NCBI GenBank assembly: GCA_016177405.1
Contig: JACOVG010000003.1
Span: forward strand, 32,050 to 96,049
From: Candidatus Omnitrophota bacterium
GTDB lineage: Bacteria > Omnitrophota > Gorgyraeia > 1-14-0-20-64-10
Length of the DNA stretch: 64,000 bases
Direction: 5' to 3'
Made by a program: the position numbers and the translations under genes
In this document: positions 20,481-63,564 of the stretch, in pieces
How the letters are laid out: the number at the start of each line of letters is the position of its first letter
Numbering within the stretch: the stretch's first letter is position 1
Notes under the pieces: model-generated
Databases searched by the model: none
The model's input: only the letters and a program-made list of their open reading frames with translations
What the model was told of the DNA's origin: nothing

Positions 20481-20486
20481 AAAAAA

Positions 20487-20560
20487 CGCGCCTGGGCCGA
20501 TTCGAACGGCCGGCCCCCTCCTTAGGAGTGAGGTGCTCTATCCATCTGAGCTACAGGCGC
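20487..20560 (-). tRNA. tRNA-Arg (anticodon CCT)
   Basis: Reverse complement folds as GCGCCTG-TA-GCTC-AGATGGATA-GAGC-A-CCTCA-CTCCTAA-GGAGG-GGGCC-GGCCG-TTCGAAT-CGGCC-CAGGCGC-G. Acceptor and T stems are perfect, T33 and A37 are present, and there is one A:G mismatch at the base of the anticodon stem. Confidence 0.7.
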
Positions 20561-20600
20561 AGCGTGCAATGAAACCGTTTTTATTATACACTGGTTCGCC

Positions 20601-24235: not shown

Positions 24236-24320
24236 GCCGATAAGGGCAAACCACCGGTAACGGTGGGACGCAAAGCCACAGATCCGCCAAAGATCGTTGG
24301 CGGACAGCTGGGTTGCCAAA
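24236..24320 (+). promoter_or_regulatory. c-di-GMP-I (GEMM) riboswitch aptamer
   Basis: AGGGCAAACC-[CACCGGTAACGGTG hairpin with GNRA loop GTAA]-GGGACGCAAAGCC-[CCGCCAAagatcgTTGGCGG hairpin]-ACAGCTGGGTTGCC matches the Vc2 GEMM core (GGCAAACC...GGGACGCAAAGCC...GGGGUUACC) and its P1 pairing GGCAAACC/GGTTGCC. Confidence 0.7.
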
Positions 24321-24338
24321 GGGTGCGAAGGACGACGC

Positions 24339-24911: not shown

Positions 24912-25655
24912 ATGCCTTTCAGGCTGGATACACCTTTTTATCCCATTCCCGGGCCGCAGCCGGAGGCCGCCTTCGGCGCGGTGTTGGAGATCCTTCTTAA
25001 GACCCGCCTCAAGCTTCACCTCGAAAGCGACCGCGCGGGTTCCGATGAGGATGTGAACGCCTATCTGGCGGGGCTCTTGGTTTCTTACATCGATCCCCGG
25101 TACCTCACGGCCGTTTCCCAGGTTCTTTCCCGTCATGAGGTGGATGTCTTTCATGCCGTCTGCGGGGCCCGCGAGAATTATCAGGTTTACTGGATCTACA
25201 AGGTCAACGCGGACGACGAGCTGGTCCACCTGGGGGTCTTTGACAGCCGCTGGCAAAACGAGCAGGCCAGGCTCCACCGCATGAAGCGGTATTACACCTT
25301 TGCCTCGGATTACCAGCGTCGGATTTATGGCAAACCGACCGCGGTGGGAGAAATCGAGCAAAAGCTTTCCGATCAATCCGAACGTTACCTTGCCATCCTC
25401 ACCGGAGCCCGGAACGACTACCTGCACATGGCCAAGACGCTTGGGGGACAGGAGCTCCTGGAGATCGAGGAGGGCCTTGCGAGGTTCGAGCAGGAGCTGC
25501 CCCGGCGGACCAAGATGGATGAGTTTTTGGATGCTTATGCCAAGTGGCTTTCGGGCGAGAAGAGCCCGGAGGCCCGAACCAGGATCTTGAGCCTCGCCGA
25601 GGAGCTGAAGGGCTTGGACCCCAGCTTTCCCAAGGAACGCCTTCCAGGTCTATAG
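24912..25655 (+). CDS. Hypothetical protein (247 aa)
   Basis: Clean ORF with GGGTAAAGGGAATG RBS context; no recognisable motifs; it lies in the same putative riboswitch-controlled unit. Confidence 0.55.
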   Translation: MPFRLDTPFYPIPGPQPEAAFGAVLEILLKTRLKLHLESDRAGSDEDVNAYLAGLLVSYIDPRYLTAVSQVLSRHEVDVFHAVCGARENYQVYWIYKVNADDELVHLGVFDSRWQNEQARLHRMKRYYTFASDYQRRIYGKPTAVGEIEQKLSDQSERYLAILTGARNDYLHMAKTLGGQELLEIEEGLARFEQELPRRTKMDEFLDAYAKWLSGEKSPEARTRILSLAEELKGLDPSFPKERLPGL

Positions 25656-29716: not shown

Positions 29717-29789
29717 TGGGCCCGCCTGGATTCGAACCAGGGACCAACTCATTATGAGTGAGCTGCTCTAACCGCTGAGCTACGGGCCC
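29717..29789 (-). tRNA. tRNA-Met (anticodon CAT; elongator type, could also be the lysidine-modified tRNA-Ile2)
   Basis: Reverse complement folds as GGGCCCG-TA-GCTC-AGCGGTTA-GAGC-A-GCTCA-CTCATAA-TGAGT-TGGTC-CCTGG-TTCGAAT-CCAGG-CGGGCCC-A. The 1:72 pair is G:C, so it is not an initiator. Confidence 0.8.
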
Positions 29790-29909: not shown

Positions 29910-29987
29910 TGGGCGCATAGCTCAGCCCGGTTAGAGCGCTACGCTCACATCGTAGAGGTCACAGGTTCAAGTCCTGTTGCGCCCACC
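29910..29987 (+). tRNA. tRNA-Val (anticodon CAC), 3' CCA encoded
   Basis: Folds as GGGCGCA-TA-GCTC-AGCCCGGTTA-GAGC-G-CTACG-CTCACAT-CGTAG-AGGTC-ACAGG-TTCAAGT-CCTGT-TGCGCCC-A-CCA. Confidence 0.8.
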
Positions 29988-29995
29988 AGCTTTGA

Positions 29996-31263: not shown

Positions 31264-31625
31264 GGAAGAGCAGGCCGGATGGTCGCCCGCCAACGTTCTT
31301 TGGCGGGAGGAAAGTCCGGACTCCCAAGGGCAGCGGAGTGGGTAACACCCATCCCCCGCGAGGGGAGGATCAGAGCCACAGAGACGAGTCTCCGCCAGAG
31401 ATCTTTGGCGGAGGGTGAAACGGGCAATCTCTCCGCGGAGCAAGACCAAGCAGACCTTGCCGATCAGCGGCCCGCTGGATGGAGCGTAAATTCACTCCGG
31501 GCAGGGCGGGTAGGTCGCACAGATTCTCCGCCGCAAGGCGGGGAACCAGAGGAATGACCATCTCCCCGCCAATGTACTTTGGCGGGGAACAGAATCCGGC
31601 TTATAGGCCTGTCTCTTCCCAACCG
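31264..31625 (+). ncRNA. rnpB: RNase P RNA, bacterial type A
   Basis: GGAAAGTCCGGACTCC, AGGGCAGCGGAGTGGGTAACACCCATCC, AGGGTGAAACGGG, AGCAAGACCAAGCAG, ACAGAATCCGGCTTATAGGCC universal motifs; P1 formed by GGGAAGAGCAGGCC (31263..31276) and GGCCTGTCTCTTCCC (31606..31620); perfect TATAAT at 31251..31256. Confidence 0.85.
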
Positions 31626-50186: not shown

Positions 50187-50483
50187 GTGTTTGTGATGGG
50201 GAATCTCTTTTCGACGGCCGCCTACGTGGTGAACACCGGGCTTACCATCTACACGTGGATGGTCATCCTTCGGGTGCTGGTGAGCTGGGTCTCTCCGGAT
50301 CCCTTCAATCCGATCGTTGTTTTCCTGGGCCGGACAACCGAGCCCTTTTTGGCTCTTTTCAGAAGGGTCATTCCGCCCATCGGCATGATCGACCTGTCGC
50401 CGGTCGTGGCGCTGCTGGTCCTGCAGGCGGCCCAGCACTTCCTGGTGAGGACCCTGCTGGATCTTTCCTTGAGACTTCGGTAG
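50187..50483 (+). CDS. yggT: YggT-family membrane protein
   Basis: 98 aa, two TM helices; VLVSWVSPDPFNPIVVFL...PPIGMIDLSPVVALLVL matches the YggT/Ycf19 family. Confidence 0.7.
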   Translation: MFVMGNLFSTAAYVVNTGLTIYTWMVILRVLVSWVSPDPFNPIVVFLGRTTEPFLALFRRVIPPIGMIDLSPVVALLVLQAAQHFLVRTLLDLSLRLR

Positions 50484-50492
50484 GAGGGCGGC

Positions 50493-51311
50493 ATGAGCTT
50501 ATGGGAGCAGATTCAAGAGGCGGTGGGCGCGATTCGTTCCCGGGTGAATCTGGAGCCCTCGGTGGCGGTGATTTTGGGCACCGGCCTCGGAGGTTTCGGC
50601 GGCGAGATCGAAGGCTCGAAGGCGCTGGCCTATGCCGAGATCCCGCACTTTCCCCGTTCGACGGTGGCCGGGCACAAGGGCCAGCTGGTCTTCGGGCGGG
50701 TGCAGGGCAAACCCGCGGTCGTGATGGAGGGCCGCTTTCACGTCTACGAGGGCTATTCCGCGCAGGAGGTGACCTTCCCCGTGCGGGTGATGAAGGCCCT
50801 GGGGGCCGAAACCCTGGTCGTCTCCAACGCGGCCGGAGGGCTCAACGCCGATTTCTCCGCCGGCGATCTGATGGCGATCACCGACCACGTGAACCTTATG
50901 GGGGTCAATCCCCTGATCGGACCCAACGACGAGCGCCTGGGGGAGCGCTTCCCGGACATGTCCTCGCCTTACGACCCGCGGCTTATGGAAGCGGCCCTCG
51001 CGATCGCCCGGAGGGAAAAGATTCCCCTGCGCCAGGGGGTTTACGCGGCGGTGGCGGGGCCCAACCTGGAGACCAAAGCCGAGTACCGGTTCCTGCGGGG
51101 AATCGGCGCCGACGCGGTGGGGATGTCCACGGTGCCGGAGGTTCTGGCGGCGGTCCACGCCAAGATGCGGGTTTTCGCGGTCAGCTGTATCACCGACCTT
51201 TGCATCCCGGAAACCTTGAAGCCGGCCTCGCTGGAGGAGATCCTGAAGGTGGCGCGAAAGGCGGAGCCCCGCCTGACGGCCCTCATTTCCCGCCTCATCG
51301 AAAAGATCTGA
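50493..51311 (+). CDS. Purine nucleoside phosphorylase (PNP-I family, PunA-like)
   Basis: VAVILGTGLGG...HFPRSTVAGHKGQLVFG...VVMEGRFHVYEGY...MSTVPEV motifs. Confidence 0.8.
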   Translation: MSLWEQIQEAVGAIRSRVNLEPSVAVILGTGLGGFGGEIEGSKALAYAEIPHFPRSTVAGHKGQLVFGRVQGKPAVVMEGRFHVYEGYSAQEVTFPVRVMKALGAETLVVSNAAGGLNADFSAGDLMAITDHVNLMGVNPLIGPNDERLGERFPDMSSPYDPRLMEAALAIARREKIPLRQGVYAAVAGPNLETKAEYRFLRGIGADAVGMSTVPEVLAAVHAKMRVFAVSCITDLCIPETLKPASLEEILKVARKAEPRLTALISRLIEKI

Positions 51312-54142
51312 TGGTTCCACCCGCCGATTACAAGGCCACCCTCAATCTTCCCAAGAGCGCCTTTCCCATGAAGGGGAACCTCCCGGCCACCGAGCCCGCG
51401 ATCCTGGGGCGATGGGAGGCGCAAGGCCTTTACGAAAAGATCCTGGCCCGGCGCCAGGGGGCTCCCGCCTTCATCCTTCACGACGGCCCACCCTACGCCA
51501 ACGGGGACATCCACATGGGGCATGCCCTCAACAAGACCCTCAAGGACTTCATCGTGCGCTTTGAGAACCTGAAGGGACGGCGGGCCCCCTACCTGCCCGG
51601 GTGGGACTGCCACGGCCTGCCCATCGAGTACGCCCTCATGAGGGAGCTCGCGGTCACCAAGCACGAGGTGGACACCGTGGAGTTCCGGCGAAAGGCCAGG
51701 GAATACGCGAAGAAATTCGTCGGGATTCAGCGCGAGCAGTTTAAAAGGCTCGGGGCCATGGGCCAGTGGGAAGATCCGTACCTGACCCTGGCGCCGGGCT
51801 ACGTGCAGGCAGCCCTGACGGTCTTGAAGAGGCTGACCGAGGAGGGCTTTGTCTACCGCGACAGGCGCCCGGTCAACTGGTGCTGGTCCTGCGAGACCGC
51901 CTTGGCCGAGGCCGAGGTGGAGTACGAGAAGCATGCCTCGCCGTCGGTCTACGTGAAGTTCCCGCTGACCGCGGAGTCGGCCAGAAAGCAGGGCGGCATC
52001 GAGCCGGGCGCCGGCCGGGGCACGTACCTCGTGATCTGGACCACCACCCCCTGGACCCTGATGGGCAACACGGCGGTGGCGGTTCATCCGGATTTCGAGT
52101 ATGCCGTCTGCCAGGCCGGCCCCAACGAGGAATGGGTGGTGGCCGCGGATTTGCCGCCGCATTCCGCGCGGGCGCTGGGGTGGGAAAAGAAATCCTTAAA
52201 TATCAAACGGACCCTCCGCGGCAGGGAGCTGGAGGGATGGGCCTATGAGCATCCCTTGGGCATCAGGCAGGGGCGGGTGGTTCTGGCCGATTATGTCACG
52301 CGGGAGGATGGAACCGGGCTCGTTCACACCGCGCCCGGCTTCGGCGCGGAGGACTACCTGACAGGGAAGAAATACGGTTTGGAGGTGCTGGCTCCGGTCG
52401 ATTCCCAGGGCCGTTTTGCCGGCCTGCCGAAAGCGGCCGAACGGTTTAATGGCTGCCAGGTTCAAGAGACCAATCCGGCCGTCATCGAGGAGCTTCGGGA
52501 GCTCGGCGCTCTGGCGGCGCCCGCGGCCCAGGTGGAGCACGACTACCCGCACTGCTGGCGCTGCCATACGCCGATCATCTTCCGGGCCACCGATCAATGG
52601 TTTCTGCGCGTCGAGCACCAGGGCCTGCGCGAGAAGCTCGCGAGGGTCATCGCTTCCTCGGTCCAATGGATCCCGCCCGAGGGCCGGGAGAGGATTCTGG
52701 GAATGGTCAAAACCCGGCCCGATTGGTGCCTCTCCCGACAGCGGTTGTGGGGGATCCCGGTCCCCGCCCTGGAATGCGTTTCCTGCGGCGAGGGGCTCCT
52801 GCACCCGGAGGTGATCGAGCGCTTCGCCGCCGCCATCGGCAGCGACCCGGAGGGTTCGGACCGGTGGTTCACCGAACCCGTCAGCCGGTGGCTGCCCCAG
52901 GGGCTGGCCTGCTCCAAGTGTAAGAGGAGGGAATTCAAGGCCGGCCGGGACATCCTGGACGTCTGGTTCGATTCTGGCGTCAGCCACGAGGCGGTCCTGG
53001 CCCGGCGCGAGGGGCTTTCGCGGCCGGCCGACCTTTACCTGGAGGGGTCCGACCAGCACCGGGGATGGTTTCAGGTGTCGCTGATCACGGCGGTCGCCTT
53101 GAACGGCCAGGCCCCCTACCGGGGGGTCCTGACCCACGGTTTTGTGGTGGACGGCCAAGGGCGGAAGATGTCCAAATCCCTGGGCAACGTCATGGCCCCC
53201 CAGGAGGTGGTTTCCTCGCTGGGGGCCGATGTCCTGCGGCTGTGGGCGGCCTCTTCCGATTACCGGGAGGACATCCGGCTTTCTCCCGTGATCTTGAATC
53301 AGGCGGCGGAGGTCTACCGGAAGATCCGGAACACCCTGCGCTTCGCTCTTTCCAACCTGTCCGACTTCAACCCGTCGGATCTGGTCCCTTTTGAGAGAAT
53401 GGAGGGCTTGGACCGCTGGCTGATGATTCAGCTTCGGCGCGTGACCGAAGAGGCGACGCGGGACTACGAGACCTTCTCCTTTCACAAGGTGGTCAAGGCG
53501 ATCCATGAGTTCTGCACCGTCACCTTGTCGAACTTCTATCTGGACGTCGTGAAGGACTGTCTCTACACCGAGGCCTCGGCCGATTCCAAGCGCCGCTCGG
53601 TTCAATCGGCCCTCTGGCGCGCCAGCGAGACCCTCCTCCTGCTTTTGGCCCCCCTGATTCCCATGACGGCGGAGGAGGCTTGGGGGGCCCTGCCCGGCAA
53701 GGGCGAGTCGATTCACCTGCAGGACTGGCCCGATCCCAAGAACCTGCCGGAGGATCCGAATCTGGAGCGGCAGTGGCAGCGGCTGCTCGCCTTGAGGGAC
53801 CAGGCGATGAAGGCTCTGGAGGAGGCCCGCTCCCAGGGGCTGATCGGCGATTCGCTTCAGGCGCGCCTGACCTTGAAGGTGGAGGAAGAGGGGCTTTGGG
53901 ATTTCCTGAAGGGCAGGGAGGAGGACCTTAAGCTGGCGTGCCTGGTGTCGGATCTGCGCCTGGTGAAGGAGAAGGGCTTGGGGGCGCCGTGCCGGATGGA
54001 GATTGCCAAGGCGGAGGGGACCAAATGCCAGCGTTGCTGGAGGTATGAGGCCACGGTGGGCTCCTCAAAGGCGCACCCGGGCCTTTGCCGGCGCTGTCTG
54101 ACGGTCGTCGAGAAACTGCTTTGCGGTGGCAGTACTGGCTGA
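51311..54142 (+). CDS. ileS: Isoleucyl-tRNA synthetase (type 1, C-terminal zinc finger)
   Basis: HMGHALNKTLKD (HIGH), KMSKSLGN, C-terminal CQRCWRY...CRRC. ATG 51311 overlaps the PNP stop; the track ORF 50255 is a 352-codon in-frame extension. Confidence 0.95.
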   Translation: MVPPADYKATLNLPKSAFPMKGNLPATEPAILGRWEAQGLYEKILARRQGAPAFILHDGPPYANGDIHMGHALNKTLKDFIVRFENLKGRRAPYLPGWDCHGLPIEYALMRELAVTKHEVDTVEFRRKAREYAKKFVGIQREQFKRLGAMGQWEDPYLTLAPGYVQAALTVLKRLTEEGFVYRDRRPVNWCWSCETALAEAEVEYEKHASPSVYVKFPLTAESARKQGGIEPGAGRGTYLVIWTTTPWTLMGNTAVAVHPDFEYAVCQAGPNEEWVVAADLPPHSARALGWEKKSLNIKRTLRGRELEGWAYEHPLGIRQGRVVLADYVTREDGTGLVHTAPGFGAEDYLTGKKYGLEVLAPVDSQGRFAGLPKAAERFNGCQVQETNPAVIEELRELGALAAPAAQVEHDYPHCWRCHTPIIFRATDQWFLRVEHQGLREKLARVIASSVQWIPPEGRERILGMVKTRPDWCLSRQRLWGIPVPALECVSCGEGLLHPEVIERFAAAIGSDPEGSDRWFTEPVSRWLPQGLACSKCKRREFKAGRDILDVWFDSGVSHEAVLARREGLSRPADLYLEGSDQHRGWFQVSLITAVALNGQAPYRGVLTHGFVVDGQGRKMSKSLGNVMAPQEVVSSLGADVLRLWAASSDYREDIRLSPVILNQAAEVYRKIRNTLRFALSNLSDFNPSDLVPFERMEGLDRWLMIQLRRVTEEATRDYETFSFHKVVKAIHEFCTVTLSNFYLDVVKDCLYTEASADSKRRSVQSALWRASETLLLLLAPLIPMTAEEAWGALPGKGESIHLQDWPDPKNLPEDPNLERQWQRLLALRDQAMKALEEARSQGLIGDSLQARLTLKVEEEGLWDFLKGREEDLKLACLVSDLRLVKEKGLGAPCRMEIAKAEGTKCQRCWRYEATVGSSKAHPGLCRRCLTVVEKLLCGGSTG

Positions 54143-55023: not shown

Positions 55024-55754
55024 ATGCACCCCGTTCTCTTTCAATGGGGGCCGCTTACCCTCCACAGCTACGGCCTGATGCTGGCGATCGGATTTTTAAG
55101 CGCCCTTCAACTGGCCCTCCGGCGCGCCAGAGAGCTTTCGATCGACCCGGCGGTGGTTCAAAATCTGGCCTTCCTTGTCCTGGGCTTCGGGATCGCCGGG
55201 GCCCGCGCCGCCTACGTTCTTCTTTTCTGGGAGATGTTCCGGGGCAATCCCCTGGAGATCCTCCGGCTGGATCACGGAGGGTTGATTTTCTACGGCGGGC
55301 TGGCGCTCGGGGTCCCGGCGGGGCTTGTTTACCTGAAGGGAAAGGGGCTTTTGAGCTGGCGGATGGTGGACCTGGTGATTCCGCCGCTTACGCTGGCGCA
55401 CGCGATCGGCCGCGTCGGCTGTTTCTTAAACGGCTGTTGTTACGGCGAGCCCTTCCTGGGCCCCTGGGCGGTTGTTTTTCCACCGGAGGGGATCCCGCGC
55501 CACCCCACCCAGCTTTACGAGAGCGGCTTTCTGCTTATCCTGTTTTTGGGTCTCAAGCGGCTGGAAAGAAGCGGCCCCCGGCCGGGGGCGGTCGCCCTGA
55601 CCTACGGTTTCCTCTATGGGGCCTGGCGTTTCGGGGTGGAGTTCCTTCGCGGGGACAACGCCAGGGGGGCCTGGGGGCTGACGGCCTTCCAATGGGCAAG
55701 CGTTCCGTTGATCGTCCTCTGCGGATGGATGCTGGCAAGGCGAGTCATGAGAGG

Positions 55755-55758
<4 letters not shown>
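55024..55758 (+). CDS. lgt: Phosphatidylglycerol--prolipoprotein diacylglyceryl transferase
   Basis: GPLTLHSYGLMLAIGF N-terminus; Lgt signature HAIGRVGCFLNGCCYGEP. Confidence 0.9.
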
Positions 55759-56666
<908 letters not shown>

Positions 56667-56715
56667 AAAATATCATCTCCTTGCATTGATTTCGCGCCCC
56701 TTACAGGGTAACCTT

Positions 56716-59700
56716 ATGGTTGATATCCCGATGACAGATAACCCGATGGCACCCGGAAAGTTTTTTATTTTGCGCCGTTTCTTAGCCCTTTGGCTAATCC
56801 TGGGCCTCGCCCTGCCCAATTCCGCTTCGGCCCTTCGTCCGCAGAATGCCGGAATGGAAGAGGGCTCCGCCACCAACTCCCAATTGGAGCGCGTCCTCCG
56901 AGGCACATCGGTCCTTCCCGCTGTTTCCCCCGGCGCCGGGCTGGAGGAGGGGCGGGCTTCAAGGGCGACGAGTCTTCGCGCTTTTCTCAACCAACACTTC
57001 AAAACTGATGACAAGAGAGATTTGGTATACCGAATGCGCGCTCTCCTCGAACACTCGTCTGAAGCTACGGATTACCAATCATTCCTGAAAGATCTGGCAG
57101 GGATTGCCATAGTTTTGGGCCACGGGAGTAGTCTGGATCCCGCTTCGATCGAATTTTCCAATGACTTTGAGAGATGGCTGAACTCCCTAGATGAACAACG
57201 TCGGAACCCTGGTGAAGAAGATTCCTATGGTGTCTGGGAAAGAGATTCCCTCAGGTTCCTCCAGGCACTAGGGCCGACGTTAGAGATATTTGCAAAAGGC
57301 GAGGGAAGCCAAAGGGCCGATTTTGCAAGTGTCGCGTCTCAATTTAAGCTGTCCGAAGAGGAGCTTCAGGAGCTTGTCAACCGCGTCCAAGCGGCCATCA
57401 GATACGATGCCGCCAAGCCCGACGCTGGGCTGGAGGAGGAACTTCTTAAACTTGCCAAAGAGCTGGAGGGAAGGCTTCTGGAGCAGGTGGAGAAGGAGCC
57501 GAAGCTTGAGGGGTTGCGCGAGAACCTCAAGGAGTGGGGCATAAATTTAAAGGACACGACGGTTCTCCTCGGAATTCACCTGGGCGCGAACGTTCTAGGA
57601 TCTAGTTCTCCGCCCATGCTGAATCATCTCTTGAACGAATTTGGGCCGGTCCGCAAGGCCTTGGGGGATCGGAAGATTGTGCATCTGCCATTTAACGTGC
57701 CGGGAACTCCCAACCCGAGCGATCCGCTAAGCGATATCCAGAAAATCCTTCCTGCCATTTTGAAAAATCCCAGGTTCGCTCTGGCAACCTTCACCGAGCC
57801 CCACAAGGGGGTCCCGGTTCAATTGGACTGGGTTAATGAGCGGGAAGAAGAGACCGGGTCTAACCCCTCCGTGACCTTCGTCTTGCTTGAGCGAGACCCC
57901 AAGGGACAGGTTAAGACGGTTGGAATGAACGGCGACGGCCCCGCCTTTTTGATCGAGGTCGAGAGGGCGTGGGGCCCCCAGGGGGGCCAGCAAGGCGGGG
58001 TGGCTGGTAAGAATGTTGTTCTGGGTGCTGGCGGCTTGGGGATCTCGCTGGTTTCAACGATGCTCAATCTTCCCCCTGCGGATCGACCGGCCAGGATCGT
58101 TCTAACGGAGGTTCCGGGTAAGCTTGCCAAGGCCAAAGAGACCCTAGAAGAGCTTCTCTCGGCGCCTGAGCTGAAGCTTTCAGACGCACAAAAGGCGCAG
58201 GTCATCCTTCTCTCCGCCACAGACCCTAACGTCACGCTAGAAATCAAACAGGCGGACTGGCTGGTGGACGCCACGGGTCTTGGCACAGATCCTCTGAAGC
58301 CCGAGGAGACGCCTCTGCCAGATCCCTCGGTTTTCTCTCAGATGAAACCGGACGCCAATATTTTGCAGGCACCCTATCGGGACAAGGAGGGTAGGCCGGT
58401 ACTAACCCGATTGATCCGCGATGCCTATTCCCAAGGGATTCCCACCCATCGGCTTCACAACGGGTTGAGACTGGCCGCCCGCAGTGCTGCCCTAGAGGTT
58501 GCCTGGCTGGTCAAGCGGCTTACCGGCAAGGAGATTGACGTGGAGATGCTGTATCAAGAGACCTGCAGGTATATCCACGATGACCTTGGCATGAGAGAGG
58601 CAAAAGAACTCCTCCGGTCGCTTCCCTCCCACCAGGCCGGTTTGGAGGAGGGATGGCCCGGCCGCGTTGCCTACAAATTGCTCGGTCTGGTTGTGGAGGA
58701 TCCTCACGCTTGGGTCAAGGGGCTTCGCCGCCAGCATCTGGAGCGACAGCTTAAACACCGGGATCCAACTGTCAGACGTGACGCTGCCTCTGCCCTTGGC
58801 GAGATGAAGGATCTCCGAACTATCCCTGCCCTTATTAAAGCCCTGAAAAACCCCGATCCATTTGTCCGTCGCATCGCTGCCAATGTTCTTAAAAAGATGC
58901 ACCGGGATCCTCAAGTTGGCTCTGCCCTTCTTATTGAAGCCCTGAAAGATCCCGATCCAGATATCCGCAAGGGCATTGCCTTTGTCCTTGGCAGTATTAT
59001 AAGAGACCGCCAATCTATCCCCACTCTCATCAAAGTCCTGAAAGAAGACGGCGACTCAGGTGTACGAGAATCCGCTGCCTATGCCCTTCTAGAGATTACT
59101 GGGGTTCGCGTATTGCATTATGCGTACAACCCCTACAGCGCTGGGAGTAAAACCGTTGTTTCCCAAGCACCCCCTAAGTACCCAGAAGCCGTCACCCTCC
59201 TACAGTCCGCAGCAAGAGAGACTCAAGATCCTGCTGTTCGGTTTACCATTTCCTGGATCCTCGAACAGTTCCAACCCAATGGGCTTAAGCAGGGGGCAAA
59301 GCTTATTACAGATGTACTTTCCAATGCCCAGAAGGAAAGGTTCGAAAACCTGCCTGGGGTCTCTGTGCGGGACCATTCTTGGATGAAACGAAAAGTTAAC
59401 CAAATCGTCTTTCCCCCCTTTGGAGATTGGGCACCTCTTCAGGAACTCTTGAAAACGTCAGGCATCAATCCCTACGCGACCCGCCTTCAATTAACGAGCA
59501 GCGCCTGGCTGGAGGGCGACCGGGTCAAATATGGAACCATCCTTGTTCTGCTGGCCAGAGCCACCCCGGTTCTGTGGCATGCCTCCTATTTCCGTGCCGA
59601 TGTGAGGGCGCATGACATTCCCCCCATCGTTGGCCCTGTGCTTGCAGGGGCCACCGGGGGACCCCGCGTGTATCGCACCGACCGCCTCATCGGCCACCTG

Positions 59701-62700
59701 GGTCATTTCGAGGAGATGAAGGCCTTCTTCCTTTTGGACTGGGCCCAGTCCCAGCTTCAGCGTCGGCAGGCAGGTAAGGAGCCGTTAATCCCATTCGAAA
59801 AAGAAGCTGCCGACCTTTATCAAATTCTTCCAGGTGTTCTGCAGGGGGTCTTTCTAGGCAAACGCATTTCCCGCCAAGGGGTGGATCAATTTATTAAGAT
59901 TGGAGAGAGATACAAGATTCCGCCTCTTAACAATGAGGACCTCAAGGCCCTCAACCAACTCTTTGTCGGAAAGGATTCTCTCTCCCTAGAGGACATCCTC
60001 CAACCTGTCTGGCGGCTCAGTAAACCCAATGAGCATGACCGTTTTGAACCTGACGCCGAGGAAAATGCCCGGGCCTGGATGGCCCTTCTGGTCCTTGAGG
60101 CCATGAAAGTGAGATACCCCGACCTTCAGAAAAAAGCGGCCGATCAACTCGAGGAAATCCTCGGAAAACTCCTAATCCTCTACCTCCATTCCTCTACAAG
60201 CCCCTCGGCCCTTCCACAAGCTCCTGGTACCCCCGCCGGGCTGGAGGAGGGGAAGATTGACCCGGCGGTGAGGGGAGCGCTCCGCGACGCGTTTGCGGGT
60301 GAGGAGATGGACGTTTCGGCGCGAGCCAATATCCTTGGCGATCAATTTCTTTCGCTTGAACCAACCCAGAAGAAGGAGCTTCTCTCTTGGCTCATCCTGT
60401 TGGGGTACTCGAAGCCAGAGGCAAGTGAAGTATTTGCCGAGATGCTGATTAACCCGTCGTCACCTCAACTGCCTGAAGCCATCCTGGAGGTAATCCTGTC
60501 GGATATCTCCGACTCTATGCTCGTGGCGGCGGCTCAACCCTCCGGCAAGGCGTTTGAGACGACGCTGCCCTACCACGTGGGAGATCTTGTTTATGCCATC
60601 CATCCGGATGAAAAGAGAGAAGCGGCGGAGAAGGTCATGCTGCTTGAGATGACGAGGAAGAGTAAGAAGAAGGATTCCCGTTTCTATGTGCTAGGCAGCC
60701 ATATTCTGCTTAATCGGCTCTCACATTTACATACCGTTGAAACGTCACGGCGCCAATGGTTTGATCAAGCCATCTATGTTCTGCCCGGCCTTTTGTCGGA
60801 AGCGATCCTTCAATGGAGGGGCCAGCTTTACTTAATGGCAACTGAATCCTACCGTTCTTATCTTCACAGTGGAGTGCCCCTCTTGCCCCATATGCAGATC
60901 TTTTCTATCCTCTCTATGCTGGAGAGCACCTTGTTGCAACATCAAAGCTTCTTGGAGGCGGGTCGGCTTTCGCTCGATCTGTCGGTAGATCCAGAGACAC
61001 GTGCGCTCAGCGTAAGATTAATCGAGGAGAAAAGAGAGGCCCTTAAGACGGACTTCTCAAGAATGGATGGTTATTTTTCTACCCTTGCGGAAGAGGTCGA
61101 AACCTACCTGACTCAAAACCTAAAAAACCGAGGCAGCATTCATCTGAAACGGGAGCTGTTGGGCTTTTTGGTGAGGATGGATGAACGTTATATAGACCTG
61201 TTGAGGGCCGTAGGAAAGAGCCCCGAAGGGATTTCTCCCTTTCAGGAGAGGATCAGCCAGAGGCAGGCAGAAATCGAACAGATAGACCAAAAGGTGCTGC
61301 AGGTTCTAGGCCTCGCCGCTGGGCTGGAGGAGGTGGAGCCGAACGAGACGCTCCTTATCCGCTGGCTTAATATGCATGAAGCCTTGTTGAATGAGAAGTC
61401 CAACAATAAAGATAGCCTCTCACAGGCCAATGAACTTCAGGCCCAGTTGTTTGCTCGAACGACAAGTTTGGAGGCAGGGATGGGCTTGCTCCGCTACATC
61501 CACAATCACCTGCTTTTGGGCAATTTTTTGTTGATGAATAATTATCGTCAGCGCCAAGCGATAGGGGATCGTTTGGTGGACGTGGTGCTTCAGATAGCAG
61601 AAAACCATAAAAACGATATCCCCTTATTGGAACAGGCCGAAGTGGTCAGCAAGGCACTCCAAGTAACGTTATGGTCTGGACAGTCTATACATATACGCGC
61701 CATGACTACGAGAATGGTAATTCAAACTTTACTGAAAAACGCTAGGGAGACTGAACAGGAGCCGCCGCCCGACGCCGGGCTGGAGGAGTGGGGTGCGGAT
61801 GTGTGGGATCGTCTCTACGAAATTGCAGAGGTGCCTGCTGTGAAACAGCTGCTCAAATCCATCCTGTATCCAATCCCGTGGGAAGAGGGATATATTCAAA
61901 TAGAAGCTGCGGATTCGGATATCACCGAAAACTGGGGAAAGATTGTCGAGGCCTTATCGGATAGCAAGGATCTTCAAGAAACGGCCTCCGTTTTTCAGAC
62001 AAAAGTGTTCAAACCTTACCAGATTTACGGGACGCTGCTTTACGACAATGACAAAGAAGAGGGCGTCCTTTTCATCGGAGGCAGCGGTATCGGGAAAACT
62101 GGTCTAGCCGTTTCGGTACTTGACTTCCCCAAACGAGGAGGGAGACCACAAACCGACCGCTGGGATGTGATGGGCGATGACACCCTCATTGGATTCATGG
62201 ATGAGGGGAAGCTTTACGTGGGACACAATCCTTCCGCAGACGTTAATCACCTGAACTACGCCAATGGATACGTCCTTGGTCAATGGGACTTTTCAGAAGG
62301 ATTTGTTCCTGTTGGACGCGTTTTCATCATGACCGAAAGCAATGACAAAGGGGACAAGCAGAGTGTGGGAGATTTTGTTTTGGACTTGATGAGCACCAAA
62401 GAAGAGAAAGCGTTTTTACCTCCGGATATGTTACAGGCGCTCAACACGCTTCCTTCCACGCGCCTGCCTGTCCCAGACCAGGCGGACCTTCAATGGTATA
62501 AGGAGCATGCCAAACCGATTGTGGAGGCATCCGGGCTGGAGGAGGGGGACGCGAAAGAACTGCGGGCGTCATTGTTGGCGCTGTGGGAGGAGATAAGGGG
62601 GCCGGTGGAAGAGATCGACACAAACGCAGGGATGCTCTTAGGTTTCCTGGAAGCAGGCAAAGAGCCTCGCGAATTTGTAAAGCAGGCGGCGGGAAAGACG

Positions 62701-63564
62701 ATCACTTCGAAGCTGGAAACCATCCTGGCGGCCGCCAAGCCGCGCTCAAAGGAGAGCCATTCCTTCAACGCCGTCATGGCGCACAAGGTCAACAATTTGC
62801 TTACTGGAATAGTCGGCTATGCCGATCTTTACTCCATAGCGAAGGATATCGAGGGTCGTAAGAAGAGGATGGAGCAGGTCAGAGATGGCCTCCGGGATCT
62901 AGCTAATTTCTTTACCGACGTTGGCAAAATGCCCGATGCGGAGCTTGTTAAACTGGCACAGGATGCTTTGGTGCTTAGCAGGGGAGGGATTCTCCAGACG
63001 GCCCAATCGTCTCCCGTTGTGCCGGCGCAGCCTCCCGCGACGGGCTTGGAGGAGATGACAGCGGAGAAACGAGTGACGGGATGGTACGAGGGGCTGACCA
63101 AAGAAGGGACAGGACAGGTGGCCGACGAGAAGCTCATGCTTCACTTGATGCCTGGTGAGGAATCGTTCGTGGTGGAGGTAAAAGACCAGCCGCCGGTTAC
63201 GGTGATCTATCGCGAGAAGGGGATGGAACTGCAGGCAGAGTTAGTGGATACGGTTGGAGGGGAGAACATTCGGGATTTGCCAGAAGGACCAGCCGATGTG
63301 GAGCTCCTTCTTCGCAAGGCCGATCCCCATGCCATTGTCCTTCTGAAGCCTGATTCAAGAATAACTGTTCCATCGGATGTGAAGATTCCGGTTCTCATTC
63401 TCCCGGCGGCGAAAGCGGCAGAGTTGACTGCCCATGAATTGAGCGCCATCGCGGCCGAAATTCATCGAAACGCCGGGTTCCACGGATACCTCTACCGGGT
63501 GAGCGACATCACCCGCGCTGGCCTCGAGGAAAACAAGTCCGCCGTTGTCCTGCACATGGCCTAA
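56716..63564 (+). CDS. Giant (about 2280 aa) secreted or membrane-anchored multidomain protein of unknown function
   Basis: Uninterrupted 6.8-kb frame in an AT-richer stretch. N-terminus MVDIPMTDNPMAPGKFFILRRFLALWLILGLALPNSASA/LRP is a Sec signal with an ASA cleavage site. Four PBS-lyase-type HEAT repeats (about 58735..59100), GxGxxG loop VLGAGGLG (58021..58050), HprK-like P-loop LFIGGSGIGKTG...MGDD (about 62070..62200), HisKA-like H-box MAHKVNNLLTGIVGYADL (62778..62830). About ten copies of an (A/P/T)-G-L-E-E motif. Start codon uncertain (ATG 56716, 56731 or 56746; TTG 56686). Confidence 0.8.
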   Translation: MVDIPMTDNPMAPGKFFILRRFLALWLILGLALPNSASALRPQNAGMEEGSATNSQLERVLRGTSVLPAVSPGAGLEEGRASRATSLRAFLNQHFKTDDKRDLVYRMRALLEHSSEATDYQSFLKDLAGIAIVLGHGSSLDPASIEFSNDFERWLNSLDEQRRNPGEEDSYGVWERDSLRFLQALGPTLEIFAKGEGSQRADFASVASQFKLSEEELQELVNRVQAAIRYDAAKPDAGLEEELLKLAKELEGRLLEQVEKEPKLEGLRENLKEWGINLKDTTVLLGIHLGANVLGSSSPPMLNHLLNEFGPVRKALGDRKIVHLPFNVPGTPNPSDPLSDIQKILPAILKNPRFALATFTEPHKGVPVQLDWVNEREEETGSNPSVTFVLLERDPKGQVKTVGMNGDGPAFLIEVERAWGPQGGQQGGVAGKNVVLGAGGLGISLVSTMLNLPPADRPARIVLTEVPGKLAKAKETLEELLSAPELKLSDAQKAQVILLSATDPNVTLEIKQADWLVDATGLGTDPLKPEETPLPDPSVFSQMKPDANILQAPYRDKEGRPVLTRLIRDAYSQGIPTHRLHNGLRLAARSAALEVAWLVKRLTGKEIDVEMLYQETCRYIHDDLGMREAKELLRSLPSHQAGLEEGWPGRVAYKLLGLVVEDPHAWVKGLRRQHLERQLKHRDPTVRRDAASALGEMKDLRTIPALIKALKNPDPFVRRIAANVLKKMHRDPQVGSALLIEALKDPDPDIRKGIAFVLGSIIRDRQSIPTLIKVLKEDGDSGVRESAAYALLEITGVRVLHYAYNPYSAGSKTVVSQAPPKYPEAVTLLQSAARETQDPAVRFTISWILEQFQPNGLKQGAKLITDVLSNAQKERFENLPGVSVRDHSWMKRKVNQIVFPPFGDWAPLQELLKTSGINPYATRLQLTSSAWLEGDRVKYGTILVLLARATPVLWHASYFRADVRAHDIPPIVGPVLAGATGGPRVYRTDRLIGHLGHFEEMKAFFLLDWAQSQLQRRQAGKEPLIPFEKEAADLYQILPGVLQGVFLGKRISRQGVDQFIKIGERYKIPPLNNEDLKALNQLFVGKDSLSLEDILQPVWRLSKPNEHDRFEPDAEENARAWMALLVLEAMKVRYPDLQKKAADQLEEILGKLLILYLHSSTSPSALPQAPGTPAGLEEGKIDPAVRGALRDAFAGEEMDVSARANILGDQFLSLEPTQKKELLSWLILLGYSKPEASEVFAEMLINPSSPQLPEAILEVILSDISDSMLVAAAQPSGKAFETTLPYHVGDLVYAIHPDEKREAAEKVMLLEMTRKSKKKDSRFYVLGSHILLNRLSHLHTVETSRRQWFDQAIYVLPGLLSEAILQWRGQLYLMATESYRSYLHSGVPLLPHMQIFSILSMLESTLLQHQSFLEAGRLSLDLSVDPETRALSVRLIEEKREALKTDFSRMDGYFSTLAEEVETYLTQNLKNRGSIHLKRELLGFLVRMDERYIDLLRAVGKSPEGISPFQERISQRQAEIEQIDQKVLQVLGLAAGLEEVEPNETLLIRWLNMHEALLNEKSNNKDSLSQANELQAQLFARTTSLEAGMGLLRYIHNHLLLGNFLLMNNYRQRQAIGDRLVDVVLQIAENHKNDIPLLEQAEVVSKALQVTLWSGQSIHIRAMTTRMVIQTLLKNARETEQEPPPDAGLEEWGADVWDRLYEIAEVPAVKQLLKSILYPIPWEEGYIQIEAADSDITENWGKIVEALSDSKDLQETASVFQTKVFKPYQIYGTLLYDNDKEEGVLFIGGSGIGKTGLAVSVLDFPKRGGRPQTDRWDVMGDDTLIGFMDEGKLYVGHNPSADVNHLNYANGYVLGQWDFSEGFVPVGRVFIMTESNDKGDKQSVGDFVLDLMSTKEEKAFLPPDMLQALNTLPSTRLPVPDQADLQWYKEHAKPIVEASGLEEGDAKELRASLLALWEEIRGPVEEIDTNAGMLLGFLEAGKEPREFVKQAAGKTITSKLETILAAAKPRSKESHSFNAVMAHKVNNLLTGIVGYADLYSIAKDIEGRKKRMEQVRDGLRDLANFFTDVGKMPDAELVKLAQDALVLSRGGILQTAQSSPVVPAQPPATGLEEMTAEKRVTGWYEGLTKEGTGQVADEKLMLHLMPGEESFVVEVKDQPPVTVIYREKGMELQAELVDTVGGENIRDLPEGPADVELLLRKADPHAIVLLKPDSRITVPSDVKIPVLILPAAKAAELTAHELSAIAAEIHRNAGFHGYLYRVSDITRAGLEENKSAVVLHMA

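Follow-up and report, generated by a model that had tools for sequence, protein, structure and literature searches.

A GLEE peptide recurs at the module junctions of a putatively exported mosaic protein of Candidatus Omnitrophota

What is one short peptide doing ten times over in a bacterial protein whose intervening parts share no similarity? The question is raised by a 64,000-nucleotide (nt) stretch of DNA from a Candidatus Omnitrophota bacterium (GenBank assembly GCA_016177405.1, contig JACOVG010000003.1, positions 32,050 to 96,049 of the forward strand). We call the whole stretch the window and give all nucleotide positions in its coordinates. Toward its end lies a gene for a 2,282-amino-acid (aa) protein, referred to here as the giant protein, in which an earlier note had pointed to repeated copies of a Gly-Leu-Glu-Glu (GLEE) motif. 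Judged from its sequence, the protein appears to be a cysteine-poor, Sec-exported mosaic of eight unrelated modules (M1 to M8). We tentatively read the motif as the cleavage site of a dedicated endopeptidase, a reading to which we give somewhat less than an even chance and which would make the giant protein an exported polyprotein.

56716..63564 (+): gene for the 2,282-aa, putatively exported mosaic protein (from the list of open reading frames and the translation; ATG at 56716)

The pattern G[LM]EE was found ten times in the giant protein, at aa 46, 75, 238, 642, 1175, 1536, 1688, 1940, 2110, and 2269 (Gly codons at 56851, 56938, 57427, 58639, 60238, 61321, 61777, 62533, 63043, and 63520). 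These coordinates agree within a few bases with the ten sites listed earlier. From composition, 0.16 copies are expected; across 5,000 shuffles of the residues, the mean was likewise 0.16 copies, and no shuffle exceeded 3. Successive copies are 29, 163, 404, 533, 361, 152, 252, 170, and 159 aa apart. Self-BLAST of the giant protein detected no internal similarity, even at E<=10, showing that the motif is not part of a tandem repeat and bearing out the earlier impression that this is no simple tandem repeat. Chance and low complexity as origins of the motif are excluded by the shuffles and the lack of internal repeats. In the remainder of the window, five G[LM]EE sequences were present (open reading frames [ORFs] of at least about 50 aa, six frames), only two of them in genes identified by Pfam, GlyS (14424) and DnaG (27327), which is about chance level.

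Is the motif a peculiarity of this one protein? A full HMMER search of 1.84 billion representatives with the C-terminal 1,108 aa returned 12 distant relatives (P0003 to P0014), each of which aligned with one module only: four with M6 (aa ~1683-1944), seven with M8 (aa ~2101-2279), and one with M7. A word-indexed search with the whole protein detected an identical entry and a HEAT-only match (P0002), and nothing else. Relatives with strict copies of the motif have 1 to 9 each, versus 0.01 to 0.11 expected: P0003 has 9 (0.06 expected), P0013 has 8 (0.11), and P0006, P0008, and P0014 have 4 each (0.03-0.07). Two relatives have none; in P0007 and P0011, only GAEE/GAEQ variants were found. Thus, the motif, which had been described as a property of the giant protein, is a family feature that also occurs in proteins of 300 to 1,700 aa.

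Further searches added little to this set. The DNA pattern GLEExWxxxxW[ND][RH]xY was found only in the contig that encodes another relative, P0015, from Candidatus Omnitrophota bacterium nzgw285. A scan of genome contigs with the C-terminal half of the giant protein revealed no relative, and a metagenome scan detected only P0003 and P0006, both already known. Searches with a leader profile (8 real and 50 designed sequences, E<=1) and with the M8 alignment gave no matches and are uninformative on family size. A second family gene (L002:572-2098, 508 aa) with a FALRAAGLEEN leader, three GLEE copies, and an M8-like C-terminus was found on the contig that encodes P0006, at a distance of 8 kb upstream, so one genome can hold several family genes. 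In this 24-kb locus (L002), all eight G[LMV]EE sequences fall within the two family genes. Members with a named source belong to Candidatus Omnitrophota/Omnitrophica, and the samples are groundwater metagenomes; examples are PRJEB22302/ERZ978390 and the NZ groundwater genome GCA_023248155.1. The sequences point to a small, undescribed Omnitrophota family, which we named ALR-GLEE. Its leader, motif, and M8 are covered by no Pfam or NCBIfam model, and a full-text literature search found no mention of the motif, in line with the earlier remark that it was not recognized from a described family.

The name of the family refers to its N-terminal leader, which in the giant protein comprises the first two motif copies.

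56746..56832 (+): signal-peptide-like segment, MAPGKFFILRR-FLALWLILGLAL-PNSASA (Kyte-Doolittle scan; pattern LPxPxxA, then LR, in eight relatives)
56833..56949 (+): conserved leader, ALR, 4 aa, A-GMEE, 25 aa, A-GLEE (motif copies 1 and 2; leader alignment of eight proteins)

In complete members, a signal peptide ending in LPxPxxA is followed by L-R, 2 to 10 residues, GLEE, about 10 to 27 residues, and a second GLEE; the stretch between the two copies often contains L-x-x-x-L-G. A signal segment, A-L-R, and two G-[LMA]-E-E sequences 13 to 31 aa apart were detected at aa 11-78 of the giant protein and also in P0003, P0006, P0008, P0010, P0012/P0015, P0013, and P0014. In the product of L002:572-2098, the signal segment and ALR are followed by one GLEE, and the next copy comes only 157 aa later. 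Using phmmer, aa 15-80 of the giant protein were aligned with the N-termini of P0003, P0006, P0008, P0012, P0014, and P0015. Invariant columns of the leader alignment, which contains 8 proteins and is dominated by 50 designed variants of the giant protein's leader, are A-L-R, G-x-E-E, L, and G-x-E-E.

The leader also bears on the start of the gene. The ORF is uninterrupted from 56686 to 63564 (+), with in-frame alternative starts at 56686 (TTG), 56731 (ATG), and 56746 (ATG). A public entry with 100% identity, 'MAG: HEAT repeat domain-containing protein [Candidatus Omnitrophica bacterium]' (MAG, metagenome-assembled genome), is annotated as 2,236 aa. Its start at 56854 corresponds to the Met inside the first motif copy (residue 47), and the leader is thereby lost. 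The upstream start is more likely than the NCBI start, because eight relatives share the conserved leader. None of the candidate starts at 56686, 56716, 56731, and 56746 is preceded by a clear Shine-Dalgarno sequence. Upstream, housekeeping genes are located on the same strand (a cell-wall/division cluster, proC, ileS, and a pseudouridine synthase gene). The G+C content is 52-58% within the giant gene versus 63-67% in the flanking housekeeping genes, and its codon usage differs from that of ileS (GAG 59% versus 81%). These shifts could reflect foreign origin or a relaxed or different constraint.

A strong hydrophobic segment spans aa 15-40, with K/RR before it and ASA, then LR, after it. It is the sole segment above 1.7 in a 19-residue Kyte-Doolittle scan besides one borderline window in M2 (start aa 434, 1.71, in a GxGxxG stretch). 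There is a single Cys in the 2,282 aa; across the family, the Cys content is 0-0.24%, versus 1.07% in ten housekeeping genes of the window. The single N-terminal hydrophobic segment with basic residues ahead of it and the depletion of Cys suggest that the giant protein is secreted or otherwise exported, with putative signal peptide cleavage after ASA.

What lies between the copies was analyzed by Pfam scans (whole protein at E<=0.01, modules at E<=5) and by NCBIfam, PDB sequence, and structure searches. When the modules were searched separately against Pfam, NCBIfam, and PDB sequences, only HEAT was above threshold.

58738..59115 (+): HEAT repeats (aa 675-800) in M3 (Pfam HEAT_2, E=8e-27; matches to alphaRep/HEAT proteins in PDB over aa 675-800)
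61789..62532 (+): M6, HPr kinase/phosphorylase-like P-loop domain with an N-terminal helical subdomain, as predicted (AlphaFold2 [AF2], Foldseek, homologues P0003, P0006, P0008, and P0012/P0015)
62545..63042 (+): M7, long helical bundle with a HisKA-like H-box (aa ~2017-2057; HisKA below the Pfam threshold)
63055..63561 (+): M8, C-terminal alpha/beta domain present in most family members (homologues P0004, P0005, P0007, P0009-P0011, P0013, P0014, and L002:572-2098)

The tandem HEAT repeats score 93.8 bits, above the Pfam gathering cutoff of 27.7, and cover ~5% of the protein length. Thus, the name 'HEAT repeat' fits one module and not the whole protein. M3 consists of these repeats and a region without assignment. 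M1 (159 aa) and the two helical modules M4 and M5 had no match in Pfam, NCBIfam, or PDB sequence searches, and neither had M8, which also lacked a significant PDB match. M2 contains the GxGxxG stretch without a significant match and, read by eye, may be Rossmann-like. The predicted fold of M6 is that of the HPr kinase/phosphorylase (HprK/P) catalytic domain; Foldseek against PDB detected the HprK/P structures 1kkm, 1kkl, and 2qmh with E of about 1e-7. M8 (aa 2114-2282) was recovered in P0004, P0005, P0007, P0009-P0011, P0013, and P0014 with E of 1e-10 to 1e-22. This domain of ~150 aa terminates 10 of the 14 members and is absent from P0003, P0006, P0008, and P0015.

With relatives and modules at hand, the position of the motif was compared with module boundaries. 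Copies 3 to 10 are the following.

57424..57438 (+): copy 3, D-AGLEE-E, putative M1/M2 junction
58636..58650 (+): copy 4, Q-AGLEE-G, putative M2/M3 junction
60235..60249 (+): copy 5, P-AGLEE-G, putative M3/M4 junction (a weak phmmer block to P0013 begins here in both proteins)
61318..61332 (+): copy 6, A-AGLEE-V, M4/M5 junction by analogy (no Pro-rich lead-in)
61774..61788 (+): copy 7, D-AGLEE-W, M5/M6 junction (G, L, and E invariant among five M6 homologues)
62530..62544 (+): copy 8, A-SGLEE-G, M6/M7 junction (GLEE, GVEE, GLEA, or GQEE in M6 homologues)
63040..63054 (+): copy 9, A-TGLEE-M, M7/M8 junction (GLEE, GVEE, or GAEE in nine M8 homologues)
63517..63531 (+): copy 10, R-AGLEE-N, 10 aa ahead of the stop codon (in the loop that joins the final two M8 beta-strands)

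The boundaries of sequence similarity coincide with the motif. The phmmer blocks for M6 start at aa 1682-1688 and end at aa 1936-1947 of the giant protein, with motifs at 1688 and 1940, and those for M8 start at aa 2099-2138, with a motif at 2110. In all five proteins that have M6, this module is flanked on both sides by GLEE or a near variant (GVEE, GLEH, GLEA, or GQEE), and the N-terminal G-L-E and C-terminal G-x-E are invariant columns of the five-protein alignment. The place of M6 in the chain varies: in P0006 and P0015 it directly follows the leader, in P0008 it closes the series of modules, and in the giant protein and P0003 it has other modules on both sides. Likewise, M8 is preceded by GLEE, GVEE, or GAEE in all nine aligned proteins that include this boundary. 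Copies at equivalent positions around M6 and M8 in homologues bear out the suggestion that this is a short linear motif at module boundaries; for copies 3 to 6, the junction reading is made by analogy. Copy 10 is a degenerate site, which in homologues is GLEE, GVEE, GAEE, GAEQ, ALER, or absent.

Recognizable domains respect the same boundaries. All Pfam and NCBIfam domains in the family (HEAT, TPR, NAGPA, IMPase, sigma-70 regions 2 and 4, HATPase_c, HisKA, and FHA) are located between copies, and no Pfam match in the family straddles one. In P0008, a sigma-70-family region (about aa 146-328, TIGR02937) lies between copies 53 and 452, and HATPase_c (1050-1168) directly precedes copy 1184. In P0006, an IMPase domain fills the module between copies 752 and 1100. 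The modules of the relatives thus include sigma-factor, histidine-kinase, phosphatase, TPR, and FHA domains. In the giant protein, the HEAT region (aa 675-800) falls between copies 642 and 1175, as the view of a motif outside repeat domains had demanded.

The giant protein carries [AST]-G-[LVAM]-E-E at its junctions far above chance, and 58 instances of the motif were collected from the family. The earlier observation of a Pro/Ala-rich lead-in holds for these family instances: Pro is the top residue at -4 (14/58) and -3 (13/58), and Ala at -2 (20/58). At -1, A, T, or S is present in 50 of the 58 instances. The second motif position is L in 47 and V, A, or M otherwise, and nothing is favored after E-E; in this logo, G, E-E, and the L/V/A/M class were fixed by the search pattern used for collection. 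Together, these patterns suggest that the motif is a sequence-specific recognition site.

Structure prediction covered copies 7 to 10. An AlphaFold model of aa 1670-1960 (five sequences) had a predicted local distance difference test score (pLDDT) of 70 and a predicted template modeling score (pTM) of 0.72; a second model, of aa 1925-2282 (nine sequences), had a pLDDT of 77. In M8, pLDDT averaged over blocks was mostly 83-94, with lower values at its N-terminal edge and hairpin loop. Copy 7 was placed in coil with a pLDDT of <50, two residues ahead of the first helix. Copy 8 was placed in a low-pLDDT break between two helices, the same in both models. Copy 9 was placed centrally in a stretch of 45 residues (model residues 167-211) that has a pLDDT of about 30. 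All four modeled copies are neither helix nor strand, which agrees with the proposed linker position for copies 7 and 9; copy 8 is at the helix break, and copy 10 is not in a linker but in a loop inside the folded M8. The term 'disordered' is a proxy only, since the alignments behind the models are shallow (5 and 9 sequences) and the pLDDT is 70-77.

Is the peptide or its DNA conserved? Six copies in the giant gene share GCC GGG CTG GAG GAG G, and identical stretches of 12-19 nt, GCCGGGCTGGAGGAGG, recur at six of the ten junctions. Moreover, the motif codons deviate from the gene's own usage: GAG 18/20 versus 59% (p=0.003), CTG 6/9 versus 23% (p=0.007), and GGG 6/10 versus 29% (p=0.04). This synonymous bias would be expected if GGGCTGGAGGAGG acted in DNA or RNA as a Shine-Dalgarno-like pause, an internal start, or a Chi-like signal, and GCTGGAGG is one mismatch off the Chi sequence of Escherichia coli, GCTGGTGG. 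However, the biased codons are mostly those preferred in the genome (in ileS, GAG 81% and CTG 45%, but GGG only 25%), and preferred codons are expected at functionally important residues. In addition, GGAGG is common in the window (346 copies on the + strand), neither avoided nor special. No suitably spaced start codon was seen by eye, in a nonsystematic inspection, in the 45 nt downstream of the copies, and GGGCTGGAGGAG occurs only once elsewhere in the 64 kb, unlike a genome-wide Chi site. In other genomes, the motif codons vary (GAA/GAG, CTG/TTG/TTA, and GGG/GGC/GGT; examples from relatives are GGC GGG CTG GAA GAG, GCC GGG TTA GAG GAG, and GGA TTG GAA GAG). Since the codons are genome preferred, vary elsewhere, and GGAGG is common, we set the nucleotide-level element aside as highly improbable. 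As the motif codons differ between genomes, selection is, on this sequence evidence, on the motif peptide and not on the DNA.

The peptide could nevertheless be a leftover of gene fusion. In two Omnitrophota genomes, P0015 (L004:7281-10685) and P0013 (L006:1578-4736) occupy the same site, spoIID-X-queA followed by a hexapeptide-repeat gene. All-against-all BLAST detected no similarity between the two proteins, which have only the leader pattern, seen by eye, in common. Because they share no module, modules seem to turn over fast while the leader and the junction peptide persist. The spoIID-X-queA locus resembles a hot spot of module turnover. P0013 contains an internal doublet, NAGLEEEMAQVLGRLASGLEEG (aa 273 and 288; span 273-292), that resembles an N-terminal leader doublet, for example SGMEENLANALGRTSGLEES of P0015, and it looks as if this were a former leader retained after gene fusion. 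From such comparisons, the motif appears to travel with modules that are reshuffled between paralogues.

Taken one step further, the long members would be fused leader-bearing genes with exchanged modules, and the internal copies old leaders, retained as a flexible break and helix start, with the 12-19-nt words perhaps easing further recombination. The P0013 doublet, the rapid turnover at its locus, the shared words at six of the ten junctions, and the helices that start immediately after two copies are consistent with this. Relics should decay, however, and G-x-E-E is retained where modules are 25-35% identical and the neighboring linker residues vary freely. Furthermore, copy 9 is not where a helix begins but midway along its disordered segment, the motif is not favored in housekeeping proteins encoded by this genome, and 12-19 nt are short for homologous recombination, with DNA that is not conserved between genomes. 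We therefore consider a mere relic or hinge unlikely.

A peptide under selection may be cut, bound, or modified, and we give the first of these the most weight. According to this processing model, the signal peptide would direct the mosaic protein outside through Sec, a dedicated endopeptidase would recognize GLEE and remove the leader, and the same enzyme would separate the modules after export. In that case, the bacterium would export regulator- and kinase-like effectors as one polyprotein. We rank processing first on four grounds: each junction has the motif, which also occurs twice immediately downstream of the signal peptide; the Pro-rich lead-in is extended, and the residues at -1 and -3, counted from Leu, are small; the modules resemble self-sufficient proteins; and there are known cases of repeated recognition sites with similar chemistry. 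A formal precedent for a G-L-E-x-x protease site is provided by PatA, a cyanobactin protease that cuts after GLEAS (PMC4282754).

Several points weigh against processing and keep it tentative. No protease module was detected in any family member scanned, and no conserved protease gene adjoins the four loci with context (the window, L002, L004, and L006). A cut at copy 10 would take off the last strand of the folded M8, and a strict protease might not accept the degenerate junctions GLEH, GLEA, and GQEE. The family is small, copies 3 to 6 are without homologues, and the models of the motif sites are based on the shallow alignments mentioned above. Cleavage is proposed from sequence and predicted structure.

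That no protease was detected is what would be expected if the linker peptides were bound by a partner and the chain stayed one polypeptide. Candidates for the partner are M8, a HEAT or TPR module, a component for secretion or surface anchoring, or a prey protein, and binding would fold the chain back, oligomerize it, or keep it at the cell surface. Placement and conservation of the motif argue for docking as much as for cleavage, and peptide-binding scaffolds occur in the family (HEAT in the giant protein, TPR in P0005). M8 accompanies the motif in 10 of the 14 members and has its own copy in an exposed hairpin loop, which might suit a domain able to bind the motif in cis or in trans. Yet no binding pocket or conserved polar residues were found in M8, in which the invariant columns are only G, L, and G, and P0003, P0006, P0008, and P0015 retain the motif without M8. 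A docking motif without cleavage is, in our estimate, rather unlikely, though still worth considering.

Modification of the Glu pair, for example methyl esterification of the CheR/CheB type or glutamylation, is very doubtful. The CheR/CheB consensus of chemoreceptors consists of a first half, [ASTG]-[ASTG]-x-x-E-E, and a second half in which the residues at +3/+4, counted from EE, are small. The GLEE copies fit the first half through A at -2, A/S/T at -1, and x-x-E-E; the small residues of the second half are not conserved in them. A weak, below-threshold CheR/Methyltransf match in P0002 and a motif in P0008 that, by eye, may be SAM-binding-like (SAM, S-adenosylmethionine) hint at methyltransferase-like modules in long proteins of this kind. 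However, chemoreceptor sites are located in long coiled coils and the GLEE copies in Pro-rich coil, and the proteins are predicted to be extracytoplasmic, away from SAM. A chemoreceptor methylation site proper was rejected because the motif is not in a coiled coil. Sorting signals for prepilin peptidase and for sortase or exosortase were also rejected, since no hydrophobic segment follows the motif and it is not C-terminal.

Apart from the giant gene, the following features of the window were recorded.

20486-20561 (-): tRNA-Arg(CCT)
24236-24321 (+): c-di-GMP-I-GGC riboswitch variant (Rfam, 63.9 bits versus a gathering score of 59)
29717-29789 (-): tRNA-Met(CAT)
29911-29988 (+): tRNA-Val(CAC)
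31267-31620 (+): bacterial RNase P RNA class A (201.8 bits)

The + strand ORF downstream of the riboswitch (24912-25655, 247 aa) has no Pfam match. The IleS ORF (50255-54142) encodes 1,295 aa, and its catalytic domain begins at residue 383; in the pseudouridine synthase ORF (55044-56666, 540 aa), the S4 domain begins at residue 259. In both, the long N-terminal stretch is without a domain match, so that either the true starts are further downstream or the proteins have unusual extensions.

How does the giant protein compare with known systems? Viral polyproteins combine unrelated proteins in one ORF with repeated protease sites and encode their own protease. In contrast, the giant protein has no recognizable protease and is encoded by a chromosomal gene near ileS, a pseudouridine synthase gene, and a cell-division cluster. 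MARTX toxins of Vibrio and relatives are large exported mosaics with effector modules that are reshuffled between strains and released by linker cleavage. They have RTX/glycine-rich repeats, a C-terminal type I secretion signal, and a built-in cysteine protease that cuts after Leu without a strict motif. In the Pfam scans of the giant protein, RTX/glycine-rich repeats and Peptidase_C80 were absent; unlike MARTX toxins, it starts with a leader of the Sec type and carries a strict motif of five residues.

In polymorphic toxins, boundary motifs such as VENN in CdiA and PxxxxDPxGL in Rhs mark one boundary, ahead of a C-terminal toxin with a downstream immunity gene. As in the ALR-GLEE family, a short conserved peptide marks the exchange point of variable modules in related exported proteins. 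The giant protein differs in having the motif at every junction (10 copies) and modules that are not recognizable toxins, and no pattern of immunity-like small genes was seen in the loci examined. The cyanobactin precursor PatE contains several cassettes, each after a short recognition sequence of similar chemistry. PatA cuts after G-L-E-A-S and the giant protein carries G-L-E-E-x, a likeness in form only: the cyanobactin cassettes are core peptides of 6-8 residues, whereas the modules here are folded and comprise 150-530 residues. No S8 peptidase of the PatA/PatG-type subtilisin kind was found among the scanned genes of the window or the called genes of L002, L004, L006, and L008, and neither the window nor the related loci showed any further gene of a cyanobactin system. 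Because defining parts are absent, we do not place the giant protein in the MARTX, cyanobactin, polymorphic-toxin, or viral-polyprotein systems.

Similar, too, are long proteins of the same phylum, described as 'Archaeovorins' (West-Roberts et al. 2023, bioRxiv 10.1101/2023.11.21.568195) and as 'multi-enzyme metabolic clusters' (bioRxiv 10.64898/2026.06.07.730766). For these proteins, post-translational cleavage into several products is suspected, and the main study calls the cleavage points unknown; a text search of the two papers turned up nothing relevant on junction motifs, linkers, or conserved leaders. Archaeovorins combine HEAT repeats with histidine-kinase, kinase, methyltransferase, and regulator domains and are predicted to be exported or membrane associated. 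The giant protein has corresponding content (an Omnitrophota origin, HEAT, the HPrK-like fold, a HisKA-like stretch below threshold, and a signal segment). It is likened to them by description only and is shorter, 2.3 versus 10-150 thousand aa, with one hydrophobic segment instead of many transmembrane helices. It has neither their length nor C39, S8, or SecA-like domains.

A different repeated peptide was found in P0002 (L001:10001-21193; GCA_028717645.1, contig JAQUNK010000013.1), a 3,730-aa Omnitrophica protein encoded at 45% G+C. It contains 14 copies of SSP[VLM], versus 0.17 expected, between HEAT, HATPase_c, and methyltransferase-like regions. The doublet SSPL-x-APQK-x-G-x-SSPV is frequent, and twice a signal-peptide-like hydrophobic segment follows it. 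The motif codons are biased to TCG CCG (TCG 12/28 versus 9%; CCG 12/14 versus 40%). As P0002 carries its own peptide between domains, such punctuation is perhaps general in the phylum. Lineage-specific peptides, GLEE here and SSP[V/L] in the P0002 clade, would then be the grammar of long Omnitrophota proteins, which would be fused exported proteins with a dedicated, coevolving protease or receptor that separates or arranges the modules outside the cell. We regard this generalization as possible but doubtful. If it is true, the cleavage map of giant proteins could be read from sequence.

Omnitrophota encode some of the longest proteins known, and the giant protein bears on the question of whether these act as single chains or as many products. 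For such proteins, the motif provides a sequence rule for splitting them into modules for structure prediction, and leader and motif together could serve to collect the whole exported set and, through co-occurrence, to trace the reading enzyme or receptor. Even if the motif is merely a hinge, it is a new family signature for proteins named only 'HEAT repeat' or 'TPR'. Next to the Archaeovorins, the giant protein, with its 2.3 thousand aa, is a small and tractable relative in which to test where long proteins of this phylum are cut or docked.

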